Shown here piece after piece: positions 195 to 10,948 of a stretch of DNA of 11,099 nt; the stretch's first letter is position 1; the number at the start of each line of letters is the position of its first letter. The position numbers and the translations under genes were made by a program. Location of the stretch: positions 1-11,099 of the forward strand of contig JBILDU010000096.1 of NCBI GenBank assembly GCA_044352465.1, given 5' to 3'. The stretch is from Bdellovibrionota bacterium (lineage in GTDB: Bacteria; Bdellovibrionota_C; UBA2361). The notes under the pieces were generated by a model that was not told the DNA's origin, did not search any database, and saw only the letters and a list, made by a program, of their open reading frames with translations.

Positions 195-1124
195 ATGAAT
201 CGACTCCCTGAACCGGATCATCACAGGCTTACGCCGCTGCCCTCAACCGCAGCGATCACCGGGAACCTTCCCCGCCCTTTCGCGCCGGGTCAGGGGGTTT
301 TGCACGGACTCACCCCCTTGCCCACCCAAACCGCCATCGAGCTTGCGTTCCTACCGTCGGTTGCCCAAGAGCAGGCGCTGTACCGACGGCGCGCCACCGC
401 TGTGGCGGTGTATGACAACGCACGCTCAACTTTTTCGGTCATCGAAGAGGGGCAAATCCGGCGACTGACGATGCACCTTCTTGCCGAGGAACATCACCAC
501 CCCGGGCAAAATTCGGAGCTTCGGTGGGCGCATACGAATAGCTCACTCAAGCAGAACCTCACCGCGCACACCACCCATCTGCTGGGAACGATCCACCACC
601 TCGCTGAAGAGCGTGAGCTCGGACTATTCCACGGCCGATTTTTACGCGGTATCGGCGGGCCGCTACCGATCGGCCGAGTGGTCTCCGCTATCGCCGCGGA
701 GCTTTTAGAGACCCCCCTGACCCCGCTCGGCGTACAACGCGAGGACAAAGGGCGCGCTATTTTGAGCTGGTATTTGGTCGACGATACCGCATCCCCGCAC
801 CAACCCCACCGCATCGATTCGGAGCGCGAGAGATTAGTATTTTGTCGAAACGTGATCGAGACGGGATTTCAACTCGGCCATACCTTCATCGAACAACCAC
901 TCGATGCCGTCGTCGCACTCGGGCAACGCCTCGGTCTTTTGAGTGGAAAAAGCGATTCACGAACTGCTTACGTGGTGGCACCGAATTCGCCCGACAACAC
1001 TGGAGAGCCGCTCGCGCTCATCGTCCGACCAGGGCCACAAGAGGGGTATGTCCCTGGAGTAACGATAGGCTGGGCACACCACGACTCGACTCCTCGACCA
1101 CCCGAGACCCGTCGAGCCAACTGA
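195..1124 (+). CDS. Hypothetical protein, 309 aa, His-rich
   Basis: Longest ORF in the region, with globular-like composition after a Pro-rich N-terminus; 18 His residues; no family motif recognised; no SD upstream. Confidence 0.7.
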   Translation: MNRLPEPDHHRLTPLPSTAAITGNLPRPFAPGQGVLHGLTPLPTQTAIELAFLPSVAQEQALYRRRATAVAVYDNARSTFSVIEEGQIRRLTMHLLAEEHHHPGQNSELRWAHTNSSLKQNLTAHTTHLLGTIHHLAEERELGLFHGRFLRGIGGPLPIGRVVSAIAAELLETPLTPLGVQREDKGRAILSWYLVDDTASPHQPHRIDSERERLVFCRNVIETGFQLGHTFIEQPLDAVVALGQRLGLLSGKSDSRTAYVVAPNSPDNTGEPLALIVRPGPQEGYVPGVTIGWAHHDSTPRPPETRRAN

Positions 1125-1310
1125 CCAAGAGTATTCACGGGCACCATTGTGCAAGCTCTTTTTCCGCAACCACCCGGAAGCGGTGCTTAGAAGAGAGAGA
1201 GCGCTGCAATAACGAAGTTACCTTGAAAGATCGAAAACGATCTTCAAAAAAAGGAACCCGTTACGAGCACCCAAAAGCCGCTGCGAATCGTGCAGATCCG
1301 CAGCAGCCGA

Positions 1311-1362
1311 GGTGAAAGATGGACGGTGAAAGATGGACGGTGAAAGTTCGGACGGTGAAAGA
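1311..1362. repeat. Tandem repeat GGTGAAAGATGGAC, ~3.6 copies
   Basis: GGTGAAAGATGGAC at 1311-1324 and 1325-1338, variant GGTGAAAGTTCGGAC at 1339-1353, partial GGTGAAAGA at 1354-1362. Confidence 0.95.
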
Positions 1363-1407
1363 CAAGCCGGAATACCTTGCGACCCACTTTCGACGGCGTC
1401 AAACTGT

Positions 1408-1443
1408 AAAAAACCACCACCAGAGTTTCCCCTGGATGGTGGC
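1408..1443 (-). terminator. Intrinsic-terminator-like hairpin inside the ncRNA candidate
   Basis: Minus strand reads GCCACCA-T-CCAGGG-GAAA-CTCTGG-TGGTGG followed by TTTTTT. Confidence 0.5.
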
Positions 1444-1893
1444 TCGAGGAGAGAGAGAGTTCACCAAAACGACCACAAAGCCCCCGTGACAGCGTCCCAT
1501 CACGAGGGCCGGGAGGAGAGAAGCTCACGACTCTGCCGCACATCATTACGACCAACCAAACTCGGAACGAGTGAAACCGGGAAAACCGTTGGACGTTATT
1601 GCAGCGAGGGCATCCCTCCGTGGAGGGGTCGCATCGCCGCGCTAACTCGAAAAATCGCTCTACCCTTAACCAAGCTTGTTTCGTAGGACTATCATGCTGA
1701 GAGTTTCAGGGAAAACACTTTTCACACCCTGCACCCGCTTCGGCCAACGAAGGGGCACTAAGCATCAGTTTATGGACCAGTGGCGGTGACATCGCCCCTC
1801 TCGAACGAACGGCGTTTGGGATAATCGACGACCCCGAGCGCGCCAAATAACGACGAGAGCCATTGCAGGGCCACCCGCAAAGATGGCCGAGGC

Positions 1894-2346
1894 TTATAAT
1901 CCGAACACCGCTGTCGCCGGAGCGTAGACCCCCGCACCGTGTTTAAATACGAGCTGGCCGCCTAAATATCCAACGTATAAGGCAAGCCCAATGGAGCTTC
2001 CGAGGGTAAAGCCGTAGGCCACGCCGAAGGCCGTGCGATTGAATCGCGCGCGCGCCGCGACAAAACGGAGCGCCGCACACGGCACACTTAAAAAAAGGAG
2101 GAGACGCCCGCAATTGTGATGCCATGCAATCGCCTCGTTCGGCACCGCGAACGTTTGGTCAGCGAGATCGCTCGCCTGATACCCCGAGAAAAAAGCCGCC
2201 CCCACCGCAACCACCATCAGCACGAGGATGACTTCGATCGGCTTCTGCCAATCGAGTCGACGTGCCCACGCCCACACCTCAAGAAAAGCGATGAGACATA
2301 GCAGCACGATCGGAAATGCAGTGAGCGGTGGATGGAGATTCAACAT
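1894..2346 (-). CDS. DUF2231-family integral membrane protein (150 aa)
   Basis: N-terminal LHPPLTAFPIVLL resembles the family HPxxVHFP motif; four hydrophobic segments; His in AIAWHH; C-terminal GYLGGQLVFKHGAGV matches the family GxLGGxLV motif. Start moved to ATG 2346 because SD GAGGAG (2361-2356) lies 9 nt upstream. Confidence 0.85.
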   Translation of the reverse strand: MLNLHPPLTAFPIVLLCLIAFLEVWAWARRLDWQKPIEVILVLMVVAVGAAFFSGYQASDLADQTFAVPNEAIAWHHNCGRLLLFLSVPCAALRFVAARARFNRTAFGVAYGFTLGSSIGLALYVGYLGGQLVFKHGAGVYAPATAVFGL

Positions 2347-2393
2347 CTCGGACGACTCCTCGTGCAATCCGTACCATACGTTTGACGGATAGG

Positions 2394-3554
2394 CTACTCC
2401 GCTCGGCGTTTAAGAGCGATAACGGTGACGTCGTCTTTCACCGCACGACCATCCAGGAAGCCATTAAAATGATCGAGGGTGACACGCAGCACCTCAAACG
2501 CTCCGGCCCCTGGAGGAATAGATTTAAAGGCCGCGGAGAGACCTTCAACTCCGTAAATGACTCGACTGCGATTCTGCGATTCAGTGACCCCATCGGTATA
2601 GAGGAAAAACAGATCCTCGACCTCGAGCGTGGTCGATACCTCGGAGTATTCGCCTTCCTCAAAAAATCCGAGCGCGAACCCCTCTCCACGCAACTCCTCA
2701 ACGACACCGGTGCGAGCCCGATACAGCAGCGCCGGCGGGTGCCCGGCACGGGCAAACCGCAAGAGCCCGGTGTCGGGATTGAACGAAGCGACCGCGCTCG
2801 TAATAAAGCGCCCCGCGGGGAGAAGTGGTGCCATCAAACGATTCATTCCCGCAAGTATCCGCGCGGGGGACTCCTCACCCACCGCGCGTTGAGCCAACTT
2901 CGTCATGCTTCCGAGGAACGCGGCGGCGAGACCGTGGCCAGACACATCAGCGATTTGAATCGTCACCACCCCGCTCGACTCCCGGTCAACCGAATACCAA
3001 TCCCCTCCCACCTCCTCGAGCGGATCGTAACTCGCCGCCACCGAATAGCGTGAATCATCAGGGAGACTTGTGGGAAGAAGACCTTGCTGAATCTCGCGCG
3101 CCTCCTCGATCTCACGGGTAAAATGATCGGTTAGATCGCGCAACCGGGCGTTCATCTCGTGGAGCGTGGCGCTCGCCCCCTTCTCCTCCCCGGCAAGCTT
3201 CCGCAGCCGTAACACGGTCGCAATCCGACTCACAACACTGCCGTTTGAGTGAGGCGGAGGAATCGACTCGACCAGCGGGAAAGCGGCTCCCGCGATCGAG
3301 TCATGATCCTCAACCGAATTCGATAGAACCACGAGCGGGATCTGTTTCGCCACCGGCTCGGTGCGGAGAAACTCACACAGCTCCAGAGCATCGGTGTGAC
3401 ACGAGGCATCGAGAACGATGAGATCCACTACCTCCTGCCGAATCACTTCGGGAAGAGCGCGTTCCCCAACGGCCTCGACTATCTTGTAGCCGAGTTTTCC
3501 AAAAAGCTGTTTAAGGCGTGCATCGCACTCGCCTACGAGGAGAAGAGAATCCAT
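2394..3554 (-). CDS. Receiver (atypical) + coiled coil + SpoIIE/PP2C Ser phosphatase (RsbU/RsbP-like)
   Basis: PP2C motifs intact: AREIQQGLLP, VGGDWY, IADVSGHG, ARAGHPP, LYTDGVTE, DDVTVI. N-terminal receiver-like fold (DLIVLD, DALELCEFLR, IPLVVLS). Confidence 0.92.
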   Translation of the reverse strand: MDSLLLVGECDARLKQLFGKLGYKIVEAVGERALPEVIRQEVVDLIVLDASCHTDALELCEFLRTEPVAKQIPLVVLSNSVEDHDSIAGAAFPLVESIPPPHSNGSVVSRIATVLRLRKLAGEEKGASATLHEMNARLRDLTDHFTREIEEAREIQQGLLPTSLPDDSRYSVAASYDPLEEVGGDWYSVDRESSGVVTIQIADVSGHGLAAAFLGSMTKLAQRAVGEESPARILAGMNRLMAPLLPAGRFITSAVASFNPDTGLLRFARAGHPPALLYRARTGVVEELRGEGFALGFFEEGEYSEVSTTLEVEDLFFLYTDGVTESQNRSRVIYGVEGLSAAFKSIPPGAGAFEVLRVTLDHFNGFLDGRAVKDDVTVIALKRRAE

Positions 3555-3665: not shown

Positions 3666-4931
3666 ATGGATGAATCAAAAGGCTTATCTCAAGCGGAATC
3701 GGTCACACCGGCCCAGCTCACCGCCGGTCTCCTCAGCGCGGACAAAACGCTCCTGCTGCCCCTGCTCTTTATTTTTGCCCTCACCGGCCTCATTGAGACC
3801 TCCCGACCGTGGAATACTGAAACCGAGACGTTCCTCTTTGCTGCGCTCCGCCAACTGGTTGCCATGATTGGAGGCTGTGCTATCGGGGCACGCTGGATCG
3901 GACGTCTGCGCCGTGAGGGGCGCACCGCACGCCCGACTGAGATGGTCAGCGCGATCCTCGCTGGCTGGGCGCTCTGGTTTTTGTTCTCGATCCCACCACT
4001 TCTCCCGCTCATCAATCCCCGACCCGAGATGCGCTTCCTCGGCGTTGTCATAGCCGTTCCGGCGATCATCATCGCGTGGCGCTATTTTATGTTGCCGACC
4101 GCGTGCCTGCTGGGGATTAGAGGCTGGCGTGCCCAACTAACGTTCAGCCGTAACTTGACTCGCCACGACCCGCTTCTCCCCGTTCGGATCGTAGCACCCG
4201 CTGTGGGGCTCAAAGTCCTTCTCCTAGCTGCACTTCACACCCTTTCCCCCGAAGGCCGTGCTCCCAGTGTTGTTTTCGGTGCACCCTTCGTCTCCGCCCT
4301 CGCGCCCCTTCTCTGCGCCTATTTGAGCGTTGCCTTCCTCATGCAGCGCTTACCGGATCGGGTGTGGAGCGACCTCGGACTCGACCCGTATCGACAAGCG
4401 CGTTTGACCACCCTGGTCATTCAAGGTCGCGGGTGGCTTGCCCGACTCCTCAAGATGCGTTCAGCGCTCGCGACCTTAGTTCTGGGGATACTTGTAGCGA
4501 TAGGCAACACACTCCGGCTCGCAACAACGCCACCGCCGGTCGATATTTCCATCGCCTCGATTGCCCTCGCCGATGGGCAAGCAACGATCCTCACCCGGCT
4601 CACCGATACGCAGGGGCACTTCCGCGGGTTTCGAGCGGTGGCTTTTTTTCTGGCGAGTGAAAGAGGCTTTCCCGTCGCGCGACGCCCTGAATCAGCTACA
4701 ATCGCGCAAGACACGCGCGATGTAAGGCTACGATTTCCCCACGACCGAACCGAAGCCGAGCTTACGCTCACCTTTCAAACCGATCGCACCGCTCTGGACA
4801 TGCAGCGCTTAGAGAATATCTATCTTTGGTACGGTGGAACCCAAGTCAAAAAACTCGACCTTACGGCTGCCCTGGTTGAGCGCTCTCAGGAGGAGGCGGA
4901 TTCTCGGCCGCCCGCAGCATCTCTGCCGTGA
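3666..4931 (+). CDS. Polytopic membrane protein with C-terminal soluble beta-rich domain (421 aa)
   Basis: About 6-7 hydrophobic segments in residues ~25-285. PAIIIAWRYFMLPTACLLGIRGWRAQLTFSRNLTR resembles the loop of YciC/GPDPase-membrane-like proteins (weak). A hydrophilic domain of alternating strands follows. Confidence 0.8.
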   Translation: MDESKGLSQAESVTPAQLTAGLLSADKTLLLPLLFIFALTGLIETSRPWNTETETFLFAALRQLVAMIGGCAIGARWIGRLRREGRTARPTEMVSAILAGWALWFLFSIPPLLPLINPRPEMRFLGVVIAVPAIIIAWRYFMLPTACLLGIRGWRAQLTFSRNLTRHDPLLPVRIVAPAVGLKVLLLAALHTLSPEGRAPSVVFGAPFVSALAPLLCAYLSVAFLMQRLPDRVWSDLGLDPYRQARLTTLVIQGRGWLARLLKMRSALATLVLGILVAIGNTLRLATTPPPVDISIASIALADGQATILTRLTDTQGHFRGFRAVAFFLASERGFPVARRPESATIAQDTRDVRLRFPHDRTEAELTLTFQTDRTALDMQRLENIYLWYGGTQVKKLDLTAALVERSQEEADSRPPAASLP

Positions 4932-5391
4932 CGGGCAGGCGCCACGAGGGAGAGACCTCGCGCCCAACATAGACATACAACGTGTCACGCGGTCCCCCGT
5001 AGACCCCGGCGTCGAACTGAATCTCGTAGTACGGGAGATTCACCTTGGCAGGCCCCGAGAGAACCCTTCCCTCAAGGTCGTAGGTGGTCTGCGAAAAGGG
5101 CGAGTACAACACGAGACCTTGTTCGGTCTTCCGGAGCGCAAGCCTGGAGAGGTCGTAGGTACACTGCGTGCTCATCGCGGAGAGCCCCTGCTCATCGCGT
5201 CGTATAATCAGATCAAAATCTTTAAGCTCTTGCGCCCGACCAAGAAGCCCCGAAATGTGGCCGATTCTAAAATAGCCGGGCGGGCGTCTGCGCCCGTCCG
5301 CACAACCCGAAAAAAGAAATACGATCAAAAGCAGAGCGAGCCCCACGACCGCGGTTCCTCTGACTCGAGGCGTTGCGACTACTGTAGCCAC
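4861..5391 (-). CDS. Lipoprotein with degenerate Rieske [2Fe-2S] fold
   Basis: Hydrophobic signal plus lipobox LFSG-C30. IIRRDEQGLSAMSTQCTY...YDLEGRVLSGPAKVNLPYYEI follows the Rieske consensus (AxSxxCTH...FDxxGxVLxGPAxxxL), but the ligands are substituted. GTG start overlaps the upstream gene by 13 nt. Confidence 0.8.
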   Translation of the reverse strand: MATVVATPRVRGTAVVGLALLLIVFLFSGCADGRRRPPGYFRIGHISGLLGRAQELKDFDLIIRRDEQGLSAMSTQCTYDLSRLALRKTEQGLVLYSPFSQTTYDLEGRVLSGPAKVNLPYYEIQFDAGVYGGPRDTLYVYVGREVSPSWRLPVTAEMLRAAENPPPPESAQPGQP

Positions 5392-5669
5392 GGCAGCTCA
5401 ATCTCCAGATTTCGGATAATATCGGAAACCTCGGTGTTCCGGGGAGCGATCACGACCCCCCCGTTGATTTCCTTGGCGAGCCGCTCAAAGAGAACATCGC
5501 GCGACTCTCGCGATCCGCCGGCTTGAAAGCCCTTCACCGTGTCCCCACCGATGAGCTCAAGCGCATCCTCAAGGCATGACCGATCTCGCGCCACGATAAG
5601 GAGTTTGTGCCCATTTATGGATAACGCCGCCGGCTCTTTACCAACAAACGGCGCAAAATACTTGGCCAT
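5379..5669 (-). CDS. Hypothetical protein, 96 aa
   Basis: ATG start, alpha/beta-like composition, and overlap with the downstream lipoprotein gene suggesting translational coupling. Confidence 0.75.
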   Translation of the reverse strand: MAKYFAPFVGKEPAALSINGHKLLIVARDRSCLEDALELIGGDTVKGFQAGGSRESRDVLFERLAKEINGGVVIAPRNTEVSDIIRNLEIELPWLQ

Positions 5670-8310: not shown

Positions 8311-8859
8311 ATGCAGAGCGACCGCAAAAAGATCACCCTCCACTCAACCGAAGTTGAAGTGGGCGCTTTGCAAGGGGCCCACATGGAGCGACCACAGCTC
8401 GCCGGCCCCCTCAACGGCCCCGATCAAGTTGCACCGGTCGGCCCAGGGCAATCACCCCAAGAGTTCCTCCATACTTCATTTAGCTTCGAGACCCCGCGGG
8501 CAAAGATTCAAGAGGGGCCCCAGCGTGTCACCGCCGAGCGCATTCGACAGATCCGATCCTCTATCGCTGTTCGCTCCAAACAGGCGAACAACACCAGGCA
8601 CCGCGACTCCCCGGAGAACACCAAGATATCCCTTTCTCACGGGGAAACGATTATCGATCGAGTCATGGCGTGGATAGCCCTATCGTTAAAGTCACTCGAG
8701 CTACGACTCTTCTCAAGACCGAAGGCCTCGACGCCCAAAAATGCACCACAGCCAGATCGAGAGAAGAGAAGGCGTGAGCGCGAATCGAAAGAAAGGCAGC
8801 GGCTTGAGCACGCGATGCGGGCGCGGCGAGAAAAGCGAGGTCCCGGAAAACTCCGCTAA
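8311..8859 (+). CDS. Hypothetical protein, 182 aa, Arg/Lys-rich C-terminus
   Basis: ATG-started ORF filling the gap between ilvA and the convergent gene; largely polar, with one amphipathic helix (IIDRVMAWIALSLKSLELRLF) and a highly charged tail. Confidence 0.6.
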   Translation: MQSDRKKITLHSTEVEVGALQGAHMERPQLAGPLNGPDQVAPVGPGQSPQEFLHTSFSFETPRAKIQEGPQRVTAERIRQIRSSIAVRSKQANNTRHRDSPENTKISLSHGETIIDRVMAWIALSLKSLELRLFSRPKASTPKNAPQPDREKRRRERESKERQRLEHAMRARREKRGPGKLR

Positions 8860-10084: not shown

Positions 10085-10333
10085 GTGAGGAAAGACTCCC
10101 TCCAAGCCTCTCACATGCGCACGGGCCAATTCATTCCTGAGAGTTTCTTTAGGGTTTTTCCTGAACTATTTAGCCGCGAAGAATCCGAGTTCGCCTTGCA
10201 AAGAACGGGGGCCCCCTACTCCATCGGTTCTTCTCCAGATGGGGTCGATCAGAGGACGACGGTGTGACAGCTCTTGTCCAGTGCCTGGCCAACTGAATCG
10301 AGGCAAATCAATTAACGCCGCGGCTCGGGGCCC

Positions 10334-10948
10334 CTACATCTTGTACTTAAAGTCGTCCGGATCGAGCTCACTGAGGATATCGTTCCACTTGTCTTTGTCG
10401 ATGTGGCGAAAATCTTTGTCCTGCTCTTCCTCCTGCGGCGCCTCAGCTACTTGCCCCTCAGGATTACTATGCTCCTCTGATTTCGGTTCGCTCGACTCCC
10501 CCTGCCCTGCGGCGTCCGCGGATCCGGGTGGCAGCGCAAAATTCATCTTCGCTTGATCGAGCACCACTTGTGCTACGAAAATCGGAGCCTCGCTCCGGAG
10601 TGCTATCCCGATAGCATCGCTCGGACGAGCATCGAGGGTGAAAACTCGCTCTCCGTGGGAAAGGGTCAATTCAGCAAAATAGGTGGAGTCTTTCAAATCG
10701 GTGATAACGATACGCTGAACCTTTACCCCCAGCTCATCGAGAGCATTCTGCATCAGGTCGTGGGTCAGCGGGCGCTGCATCGCCACCTGCTTTATAGCAC
10801 TCGCTATCGAGGTCGCTTCAGCCACACCGATCCAGATCGGCAGAGCGATCTTCCCCGTTTCATCCTTAAGCACCACAACCGGTGCCTGGGTGTTCGGGTC
10901 GAGCACCAGCCCGCCTACGAACATCTCAATAACAGCTTCCTTGGACAT
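10334..10948 (-). CDS. Bifunctional nuclease family protein (DUF151/BFN)
   Basis: PVVVLKD, LPIWIGVAEATSI, RPLTHDL, ITDLKDSTYFAEL, LDARPSDAIGIALRSEAPIFV; acidic tail ending LSELDPDDFKYKM; SD-like GAAGGAAG upstream. Confidence 0.95.
   Translation of the reverse strand: MSKEAVIEMFVGGLVLDPNTQAPVVVLKDETGKIALPIWIGVAEATSIASAIKQVAMQRPLTHDLMQNALDELGVKVQRIVITDLKDSTYFAELTLSHGERVFTLDARPSDAIGIALRSEAPIFVAQVVLDQAKMNFALPPGSADAAGQGESSEPKSEEHSNPEGQVAEAPQEEEQDKDFRHIDKDKWNDILSELDPDDFKYKM

Follow-up and report, generated by a model that had tools for sequence, protein, structure and literature searches.

RNAIII is an RNA of 514 nt with UCCC/CU motifs. A CU-tract design is considered here for an element of ~490 nt on the minus strand (~1185–1680) of an 11,099-nt stretch of DNA, which is the entire contig JBILDU010000096.1 of a 3.1-Mb metagenome-assembled genome (MAG; GCA_044352465.1, here G000; completeness 95%) of a Bdellovibrionota bacterium; this stretch is referred to as the window, and coordinates are window positions. 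We infer the element to be a functional, highly folded non-coding RNA. It lies behind a pair of genes for a SpoIIE-type phosphatase and a DUF2231 membrane protein, and a second MAG of the same genus (G001) was used as the sole comparison species.

The closest described systems are the following. RsaC of Staphylococcus aureus is described (PMC6765141) as a large structured RNA that is released by RNase III from mntABC's 3' untranslated region (3'UTR), varies in length by isolate (584–1116 nt, with 2–4 repeats of 133 nt at the 5' end), is confined to one species group and blocks translation initiation of a target mRNA. Compared with this account, the present element is likewise a large structured RNA behind a same-strand operon with a narrow range, in which the copy number of a repeat (14 nt) varies between lake strains and the repeat is missing in the sister species G001. 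It differs in that no Rfam match was obtained, in that the repeats are of 14 nt and lie in the middle instead of 133 nt at the 5' end, and in its length of ~490 nt; the likeness in co-transcription, processing and targets is only proposed for the element.

The 3'UTR of the icaR mRNA of S. aureus carries, according to PMC3868564, a UCCCCUG motif 260 nt behind the stop codon which is complementary to the same transcript's Shine–Dalgarno (SD) region. Similarly, the CU-rich tracts of the element are placed 370–450 nt behind the DUF2231 stop codon, and among them the second is predicted to pair best with the DUF2231 leader in either species. Unlike the single icaR motif as reported there, three or four tracts tied to strong hairpins are present, and their complementarity is predicted only and hardly exceeds generic SD pairing. 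In Listeria, PMC4132741 describes LhrC1–5 as sibling genes of ~110 nt with their own promoters; their C/U-rich motifs are redundant, lie in loops or in single-stranded stretches, and bind to the G-rich sequence in front of start codons. The element shares with LhrC, so described, several redundant C/U-rich tracts next to hairpins; in contrast, its modules are united in a single element that a long-range stem brackets, the tracts form linkers 5' of the hairpins rather than loops, and the host belongs to another phylum.

Strand-specific structure and conservation of the element

The original prediction, made from the letters of the window alone, had proposed an unannotated, structured non-coding RNA (ncRNA) of ~405 nt on the minus strand (1202–1606), closed by a 13-bp terminal stem and selected at the RNA level. 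The perfect 13-nt inverted repeat underlying this stem (1202–1214/1594–1606) was confirmed; by an arithmetic estimate, ~0.005 such pairs are expected per 800-nt region. The three hairpins placed between the arms (1308–1276, 1509–1480 and 1443–1413; below A, B and C) were recovered from the sequence and from the minimum free energy (MFE) structure with the lengths, loops and G-U counts that had been given for them. The minus strand of the 405-nt unit folded at −166.8 kcal/mol vs −125.9 ± 5.5 kcal/mol for dinucleotide shuffles (z −7.49; 0/100 shuffles as good) and the plus strand at −132.4 kcal/mol (z −3.61), which bears out the predicted folding advantage of the minus strand. In 120-nt segments across positions 1–2400, excess structure was found at 1201–1320 (minus strand z −7.1) and 1401–1520 (minus strand z −4.1), the remainder being unremarkable. 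A 501-nt version (1185–1685, minus strand) folded at −198 kcal/mol with z −4.89. Structure within the 405-nt unit is thus real, while its limits had to be widened: the fold reaches ~1185 and conservation reaches ~1665–1680.

Read 5' to 3' on the minus strand, the element starts with a conserved block GGGUAGAGCG (1656–1665), followed by a local 5' helix-hairpin domain (1592–1648; RNAalifold pairs 44–83) that consists of an outer helix GCGGCGA/UCGCUGC and a covarying inner hairpin. A 17-nt block CCCUCGCUGCAAUAACG, identical in both species (1594–1610), lies within it and includes the 5' arm (1594–1606) of the inverted repeat. A small conserved hairpin CACUCGUUCCGAGU (1560–1573; RNAalifold pairs 114–126 in the G001 alignment) precedes CU-rich tract 1, the anti-SD-like CUUCUCUCCUCCC (1511–1523; conserved in G001), which is located directly 5' of hairpin B (1480–1509; 13–14 bp, GACG loop, 3 G-U pairs). 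Tract 2, CUCUCUCUCUCCUC (1446–1459), is located directly 5' of hairpin C (1443–1413; 7 + 6 bp, one bulged U, GAAA loop, 2 G-U pairs), which together with a U6 run occupies 1407–1443 and is terminator-like in G000 only. Thereafter follow a variable middle (1309–1408) with a tandem repeat at 1311–1362 (14-nt unit, 3.6 copies by Tandem Repeats Finder, TRF), absent or diverged in G001, and hairpin A (1276–1308; 14 bp, 5-nt loop, 3 G-U pairs) with the CU-rich CUUUCACCUCG in front. Hairpins A, B and C are all present in the MFE structure. A U7 run and hairpin D (GAAGAUCG-UUUU-CGAUCUUU; 1226–1252, the hairpin at 1245–1226) were seen in the MFE structure and in the folding of 120-nt segments. The 3' arm of the inverted repeat (1202–1214) and a terminal CU tract CUCUCUCUCUUCU (1189–1201) complete the element.

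The long-range closing stem of 13 bp was retained in the 1185–1685 fold, where it is extended by predicted pairing of GGGUAGAGCG with the terminal CU tract. Its ensemble probability was only ~0.5, owing to competition from a conserved, covarying local helix: positions 1601–1606 can alternatively close GCGGCGA/UCGCUGC, a helix that does not differ between the two species and runs on into an inner hairpin with two two-sided changes relative to G001. As the terminal stem of the original prediction, the repeat pair was thus not supported in the form proposed. The heptamer AAUAACG (1594–1600), free in the local-helix form, might act as a toehold on which the 3' arm pairs. A 12-codon mini-open reading frame (mini-ORF; AUG...UAA, 1596–1634, minus strand; ~325–363 of the G001 locus) of equal length and with the same last four residues (PSLQ) in both species was also noted here; it is probably a by-product of the structure, because its start and stop codons sit in the two strands of the helix GCGGCGA/UCGCUGC.

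Among 40 related genomes searched with blastn, only G001 matched (71% identity over window positions 1410–1648, E 8e-25), the remaining three matches being of 20–33 nt at E 0.002–0.009. Synteny is the same in G001, with the element behind DUF2231 and SpoIIE orthologues and the contig ending inside hairpin D. Conservation begins at GGGUAGA (~1665), 60 nt past the boundary of the 405-nt unit, and continues through CCCUCGCUGCAAUAACG and hairpins B, C and A, with identities of 0.73 for the 5' domain, 0.68 for the hairpin C module, 0.77 for the part with hairpins A and D and 0.54 for the middle. Third codon positions of the two flanking genes were 0.46 and 0.44 identical between both species, and the spacer that separates the element from DUF2231, with its 95 gap columns, likewise reached only 0.44. 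Judged by this comparison, neutral sites are saturated, and the element is under purifying selection.

The pattern of changes follows the fold. Alignment columns differed in 43/190 paired and 84/210 unpaired positions. RNAalifold with the two species returned 95 pairs at −110.7 kcal/mol for the minus strand, 14 of them with two-sided changes, and 69 pairs at −60.3 kcal/mol for the plus strand. As this consensus is fitted to both sequences, the pairs of the MFE structure of G000 alone were scored in G001 as an independent test: 94 were kept, 28 broken and 36 fell at gaps, vs 52–57 kept and 63–74 broken in a control with the 3' partners slid by 1–3 columns. All 14 pairs of hairpin A were kept, as were 14 of the 17 pairs of the helix 1516–1497/1492–1473, which contains hairpin B (0 broken, 3 at gaps). 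Hairpin C kept 12/15 pairs, and all of them in the RNAalifold register, with two-sided changes at four pairs (alifold columns 246/270, 248/268, 253/264 and 254/263). In the local 5' helix (1648–1623/1618–1592), 17/21 pairs defined in G000 were kept, 3 with both sides changed; in the long-range helix 1678–1670/1565–1557, 8/9 were kept. For the strong G000 hairpin 1405–1345, which is not conserved, 6 pairs were kept, 7 were broken and 12 fell at gaps; the U tract is absent after hairpins C and A in G001. Taken together, these comparisons point to selection acting on the minus-strand RNA structure, as originally proposed; hairpins defined in G000 alone are kept in the homologue with one- and two-sided changes, and the middle (1309–1408) proved variable.

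The 3' end of the element was also sought elsewhere in the G001 assembly, with the 13-mer at up to 2 mismatches. This gave 49 + 48 matches vs 41 + 35 for the reversed control, the sole exact match being the known arm; the one candidate near a contig end (C251) was ruled out as unrelated sequence, so that this search of the assembly yielded no partner arm. The left 1300 nt of the window compared with G001 gave nothing at E ≤ 1 beyond matches of 17–37 nt.

CU tracts and a proposed 3'UTR-linked regulatory RNA

A modular design occurs three times in the element: a pyrimidine tract is followed within 1–3 nt by a hairpin of 13–15 bp. Module 1 consists of CUUCUCUCCUCCC and hairpin B, module 2 of CUCUCUCUCUCCUC and hairpin C, and module 3 of CUUUCACCUCG (CUUUCUCCCCUCC in G001) and hairpin A, and a fourth CU tract sits after the closing stem. 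Tract 2 is identical in 13/14 positions in G001, vs an average of 60% for unpaired columns. By ensemble prediction, the tracts have a mean P(unpaired) of 0.47–0.64 (0.47 for tract 1, 0.54 for tract 2) vs 0.33–0.36 for the whole RNA, in both species. They are of CCUCC type and complementary to GGAGG ribosome-binding sites, and ribosome-binding sites of the GGAG type are in use in G000, where they peak at −14 to −9.

Duplex energies were calculated for the four tracts against 2306 crude leaders of G000, and the G001 leader was ranked on the same background. Of the tracts, tract 2 paired most stably with the DUF2231 leader, at −18.9 kcal/mol in G000 (top 8%) and at −26.8 kcal/mol in G001 (top 1.2%). 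The top leader matches among the 2306 belonged to an OmpA-family gene, an NAD kinase and a fused E1 dehydrogenase; besides the moderate DUF2231 leader, no other conserved mRNA target emerged from the 2306 leaders and the check in G001.

The gene in front of the element encodes the DUF2231 membrane protein (1894–2367, minus strand; likely start ATG at 2346, with GAGGAG in front) and is preceded by the first gene of the pair, for the SpoIIE-type PP2C phosphatase (2394–3554, minus strand). Both were confirmed on the minus strand by Pfam search, the receiver domain of the phosphatase being a weak match. From the DUF2231 stop codon (1894) to the 405-nt unit the distance is 288 nt on the same strand, in agreement with the ~290 nt stated originally, and the converging ORF (195–1124, plus strand) is present as well. 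A sigma-70-type promoter scan of 1050–2000 on the minus strand gave no promoter-like site, and a visual inspection of the upstream regions of both species revealed no convincing conserved site resembling those of sigma-70, sigma-54 or sigma-28. The terminator-like sites passing a scan of the same region were hairpin C with U6 and a weak one at 1268–1256; between the DUF2231 stop codon (1894) and the element (1680) there was none. Since no promoter-like site lies in front of it on the minus strand, the element may be a 3'UTR and not a separate gene.

We consider a 3'UTR-linked regulatory RNA that masks ribosome-binding sites the best reading of the element, at a likelihood a little short of even. 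The element is probably a long 3' extension of the upstream operon, as far as the gene layout indicates; co-transcription with the SpoIIE-phosphatase and DUF2231 genes is proposed because no promoter-like or terminator-like site was found between operon and element. Release from the operon transcript might occur by cleavage at the long-range 5'/3' stem. The three conserved modules, each with a partly exposed CU-rich tract ahead of a stable 13–15-bp hairpin, would be the working parts: the tracts would pair with the SD regions of the DUF2231 gene or of other mRNAs and reduce their translation, while the hairpins would stabilize the RNA and end transcription. Pairing of the most conserved block (1594–1610) either with the local upstream helix or with the 3' end would provide a possible toggle between an open and a closed form.

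Several observations weigh against this regulatory reading. Hairpin C with its U6 run would halt many G000 transcripts at ~1407, before the 3' arm of the closing stem is reached, and the terminal CU tract is predicted to be mostly paired (P unpaired 0.23). The pairing of tract 2 with the DUF2231 leader is mostly plain SD complementarity, as would be expected for any strong ribosome-binding site; the leader of the best genome-wide candidate, the OmpA-family gene, is GA-rich in G000 and not in G001, and the first gene of the operon, for the SpoIIE phosphatase, has no matching leader in the duplex scan. The anti-SD interpretation may be an easy over-interpretation of pyrimidine tracts. Further, the promoter scan was a simple one for sigma-70-type sites only, two species do not allow a statistical covariation test, and among the 22 listed runs considered below, none with the stretch was an RNA run.

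The variable middle was followed in lake populations. The stretch or part of it is present in 20 of the 22 listed public lake or freshwater metagenome runs, from 17 studies, 4 of the runs possibly being the source sample. Four metagenome runs were aligned to the window. A 958-nt contig of one run (X8), spanning 876–1862 at a depth of ~23, differed by 5 substitutions and a 29-nt deletion at 1321 that corresponds to two repeat units. The contig of a second run (X16) was more divergent and skipped 100 nt from 1308 to 1409, so that 1309–1408 is absent. In both contigs together, seven substitutions fall into 1185–1680, two of them in hairpin loops (1291, 1494), one at a predicted pair that is kept as G-U (1460) and four in linkers. 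The stems of hairpins A–C were spared by all seven; as ~1.2 stem hits are expected by chance, this is not significant.

The start region of the fused E1 alpha/beta dehydrogenase (696 aa; G000 contig C99, 43270–43345) was found to contain GGUGAGAGAUGG-type repeats, which are complementary, with G-U pairs, to the G000-specific tandem repeat 1311–1362. The duplex of this leader with the tandem repeat, at −39 kcal/mol, is a clear outlier of the 2306 leaders (mean −14.4, sd 5.0). In G001, the tandem repeat is missing.

Competing explanations

The element could instead be a stand-alone ncRNA with its own, unrecognised promoter, which acts by titration of a protein (a pyrimidine-tract- or hairpin-binding one) or in another structural role rather than by pairing with ribosome-binding sites. 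We hold this to be unlikely, although a spacer of 215 nt with poor conservation separates the DUF2231 stop codon from the first conserved block and no conserved mRNA target was found in the leader scan. Repeated similar modules are typical of protein sponges such as CsrB/RsmZ and CrcZ, and similar modules are repeated in the element, too; moreover, blocks of primary sequence are conserved outside the helices (1594–1610 and GAUGUG-GGCAGAGU). On the other hand, the minus-strand scan returned no promoter-like site, and the loops hold no known binding motif such as GGA, nor is there a candidate protein. Its genus-restricted distribution speaks in the same direction.

A passive 3'UTR, in which terminator or stabiliser hairpins insulate the operon from the convergent orphan gene, are conserved solely for the sake of termination and RNA stability and have no regulatory targets, is likewise doubtful. 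It would account for the position between convergent genes, for the two sites that pass the terminator scan, for the U-rich tail behind each hairpin in G000 (UUUG, U6 and UUUU) and for a structure signal that is limited to local hairpins. However, G001 lacks U tracts behind hairpins C and A, yet the hairpins are kept there by compensatory changes. Non-hairpin blocks and CU tracts are conserved to the same degree as the stems, and neither the 13-nt long-range repeat nor the 5' domain has a role in termination. A CTCC-containing pyrimidine run of at least 10 nt precedes only 12 of the 2657 G000 hairpins with stems of at least 10 pairs, hairpin B being one of them; because so few long hairpins show it, tract plus hairpin is not the usual terminator design of the organism.

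It is very improbable that the stretch is a DNA-level or selfish element, be it a miniature inverted-repeat transposable element (MITE) with 13-bp terminal inverted repeats or a hairpin cluster of the type of repetitive extragenic palindromes (REP) or bacterial interspersed mosaic elements (BIME). The perfect terminal inverted repeat with arms ~400 bp apart agrees with a MITE; a target-site duplication was not seen, the flanks sharing at most AG. Homology to G001 continues 60–75 nt past the right arm, to ~1665, and the same site is occupied in a species with saturated neutral sites. Like REP and BIME sequences, the element lies between genes of G000 and has GC-rich hairpins next to a GGAG-containing run; on the plus strand, hairpins B and C are each followed by such a GGAG-rich run, TRF detects arrays of the GGAGGG-CCGGAC...GTCCGG type in the genome, and both assemblies break near the locus. 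Unlike them, it is present in a single copy: blastn-short with 11 segments returned self and chance matches of 12–17 nt, and a 776-nt query gave one match. Its hairpin sequences do not resemble the REP consensus of G000. In REP elements, a tetranucleotide tag is conserved where the palindrome has its 5' foot. The G000 units consist of GGAGGG followed by the palindrome, whereas in the element the GGAG run is 3' of the hairpin on the plus strand and CUCC is 5' of it on the minus strand, that is, the tag is on the other side. Finally, its G-U pairs are functional on one strand only. The REP/BIME-like arrays themselves, with a period of 151–172 nt and GGAGGG-CCGGAC...GTCCGG palindromes, were located at C99:25389–25761, C71:8867–9227 and C7:49810–50157.

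That the region is conserved for one or more small proteins can hardly be believed, for although ORFs of 103 and 117 aa (1244–1555, minus strand, and 1333–1686, plus strand) and the mini-ORF from 1634 to 1596 (minus strand), equally long and ending in the same four residues in both species, are present, the interspecies similarity comes in short pieces over all six frames with frame changes, indels are not multiples of three, codon-position GC is flat (0.57/0.51/0.58 and 0.57/0.58/0.52 vs 0.64–0.69/0.36–0.51/0.63–0.68 in real genes), no Pfam match was obtained, and the mini-ORF is without a ribosome-binding site and has its ends in the two strands of a conserved helix.

Distribution, genomic surroundings and meaning

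As far as could be searched, the element appears restricted to one genus of uncultured freshwater bacteria. A covariance model of 172 positions (R1), built for the 5' domain from the G000 and G001 sequences, matched only these two in 91 genomes of the order and in 124 of the phylum. In GTDB contigs, a two-block pattern was found in G001 and once in a Planctomycetia sequence, in what looks like a chance match to the last part of a coding gene; a pattern of this kind gave 0 and 0 matches in JGI metagenome contigs and IMG/VR viral contigs. A search of JGI metagenome contigs with the DUF2231 protein led to 136 pattern matches, none of which was confirmed. In two other genera of the family with DUF2231 relatives (G004, 53% identity; G002, 26%), the downstream DNA is unrelated.

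Rfam 15 includes, as far as curated, 6S, tmRNA, RNase P, signal recognition particle (SRP) RNA, OLE, GOLLD, HEARO, ROOL, raiA, RNAIII and riboswitches. The expectation that no catalogued family would fit held: at gathering scores the entire window gave 0 matches, as did 1050–2000 when E was relaxed to ≤ 10; the G001 homologue matched only mir-988, at 18.4 bits vs a gathering score of 72 (E 0.62). The element was also correctly set apart from tmRNA, RNase P and SRP RNA, the genes of which were found on other G000 contigs: RNase P on C146 (226.7 bits), tmRNA on C43 (175.7 bits) and SRP RNA on C97 (54.4 bits). No 6S RNA (RF00013) was detected in G000 at E ≤ 1, with a model that is insensitive and found it in only 5/14 control genomes. 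A role as 6S RNA is unsupported, and the idea was dropped for want of any likeness; the element is branched and 2.5 times the length of 6S. A literature search yielded no described regulatory RNA for this lineage, a transcriptome paper on Bdellovibrio bacteriovorus being the only relevant item.

The convergent orphan ORF (195–1124, plus strand; 309 aa) has a coding-like GC profile over the codon positions (0.69/0.48/0.64), resembling that of real genes, and gave no Pfam match and no relative in the 40 related genomes. It is part of the population, since contigs from lake metagenomes span it with ≥99% identity. At E ≤ 0.01, Pfam matches were absent for further sizeable ORFs of the window (3666–4931, 4834–5526 and 8311–8859, all on the plus strand). 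The two assemblies are interrupted at or near the locus, that of G000 with the contig end ~1.2 kb past the element and that of G001 inside hairpin D, which suggests strain variation or a nearby repeat. On other contigs of G000, tandem units of ~76–96 nt with a hairpin and GGA-rich runs (GAUAGGAAUGGAUCGAAUGGA...) were observed at C90:4788–5092, C145:7386–7600 and C34:6283–6531; they recall arrays of CsrA-binding small RNAs, or may be another repeat family. Two inverted arrays with a period of 77–78 nt at C127:8614–8872 and 10219–10458, whose unit looks like a tRNA gene (T arm of the GGTTCGAATCC type), gave weak matches to the tmRNA model.

Considered as a regulatory RNA linked to the 3'UTR, the element invites a bolder formulation, which we regard as speculative and quite unlikely in full: relatives of predatory bacteria would possess a regulatory RNA of half a kilobase that belongs to a new class. 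It would be excised from the operon 3' end at its long 5'/3' stem, carry three conserved anti-ribosome-binding-site tracts between hairpins, and switch between an open and a closed form, its most conserved 17-nt block being able to pair with a local helix or, via a 7-nt toehold, with the 3' end of the RNA, so that the fold gates access to the tracts. The weight of the finding is limited by its occurrence in one genus and by what is mostly a simple chain of hairpins and not an intricate tertiary fold, with target and transcript only proposed. If expressed, however, the element would add a structured RNA of ~490 nt that no catalogue lists, from a freshwater lineage that is uncultured and poorly studied, and it would extend to a distant phylum a design which we know only from staphylococci.

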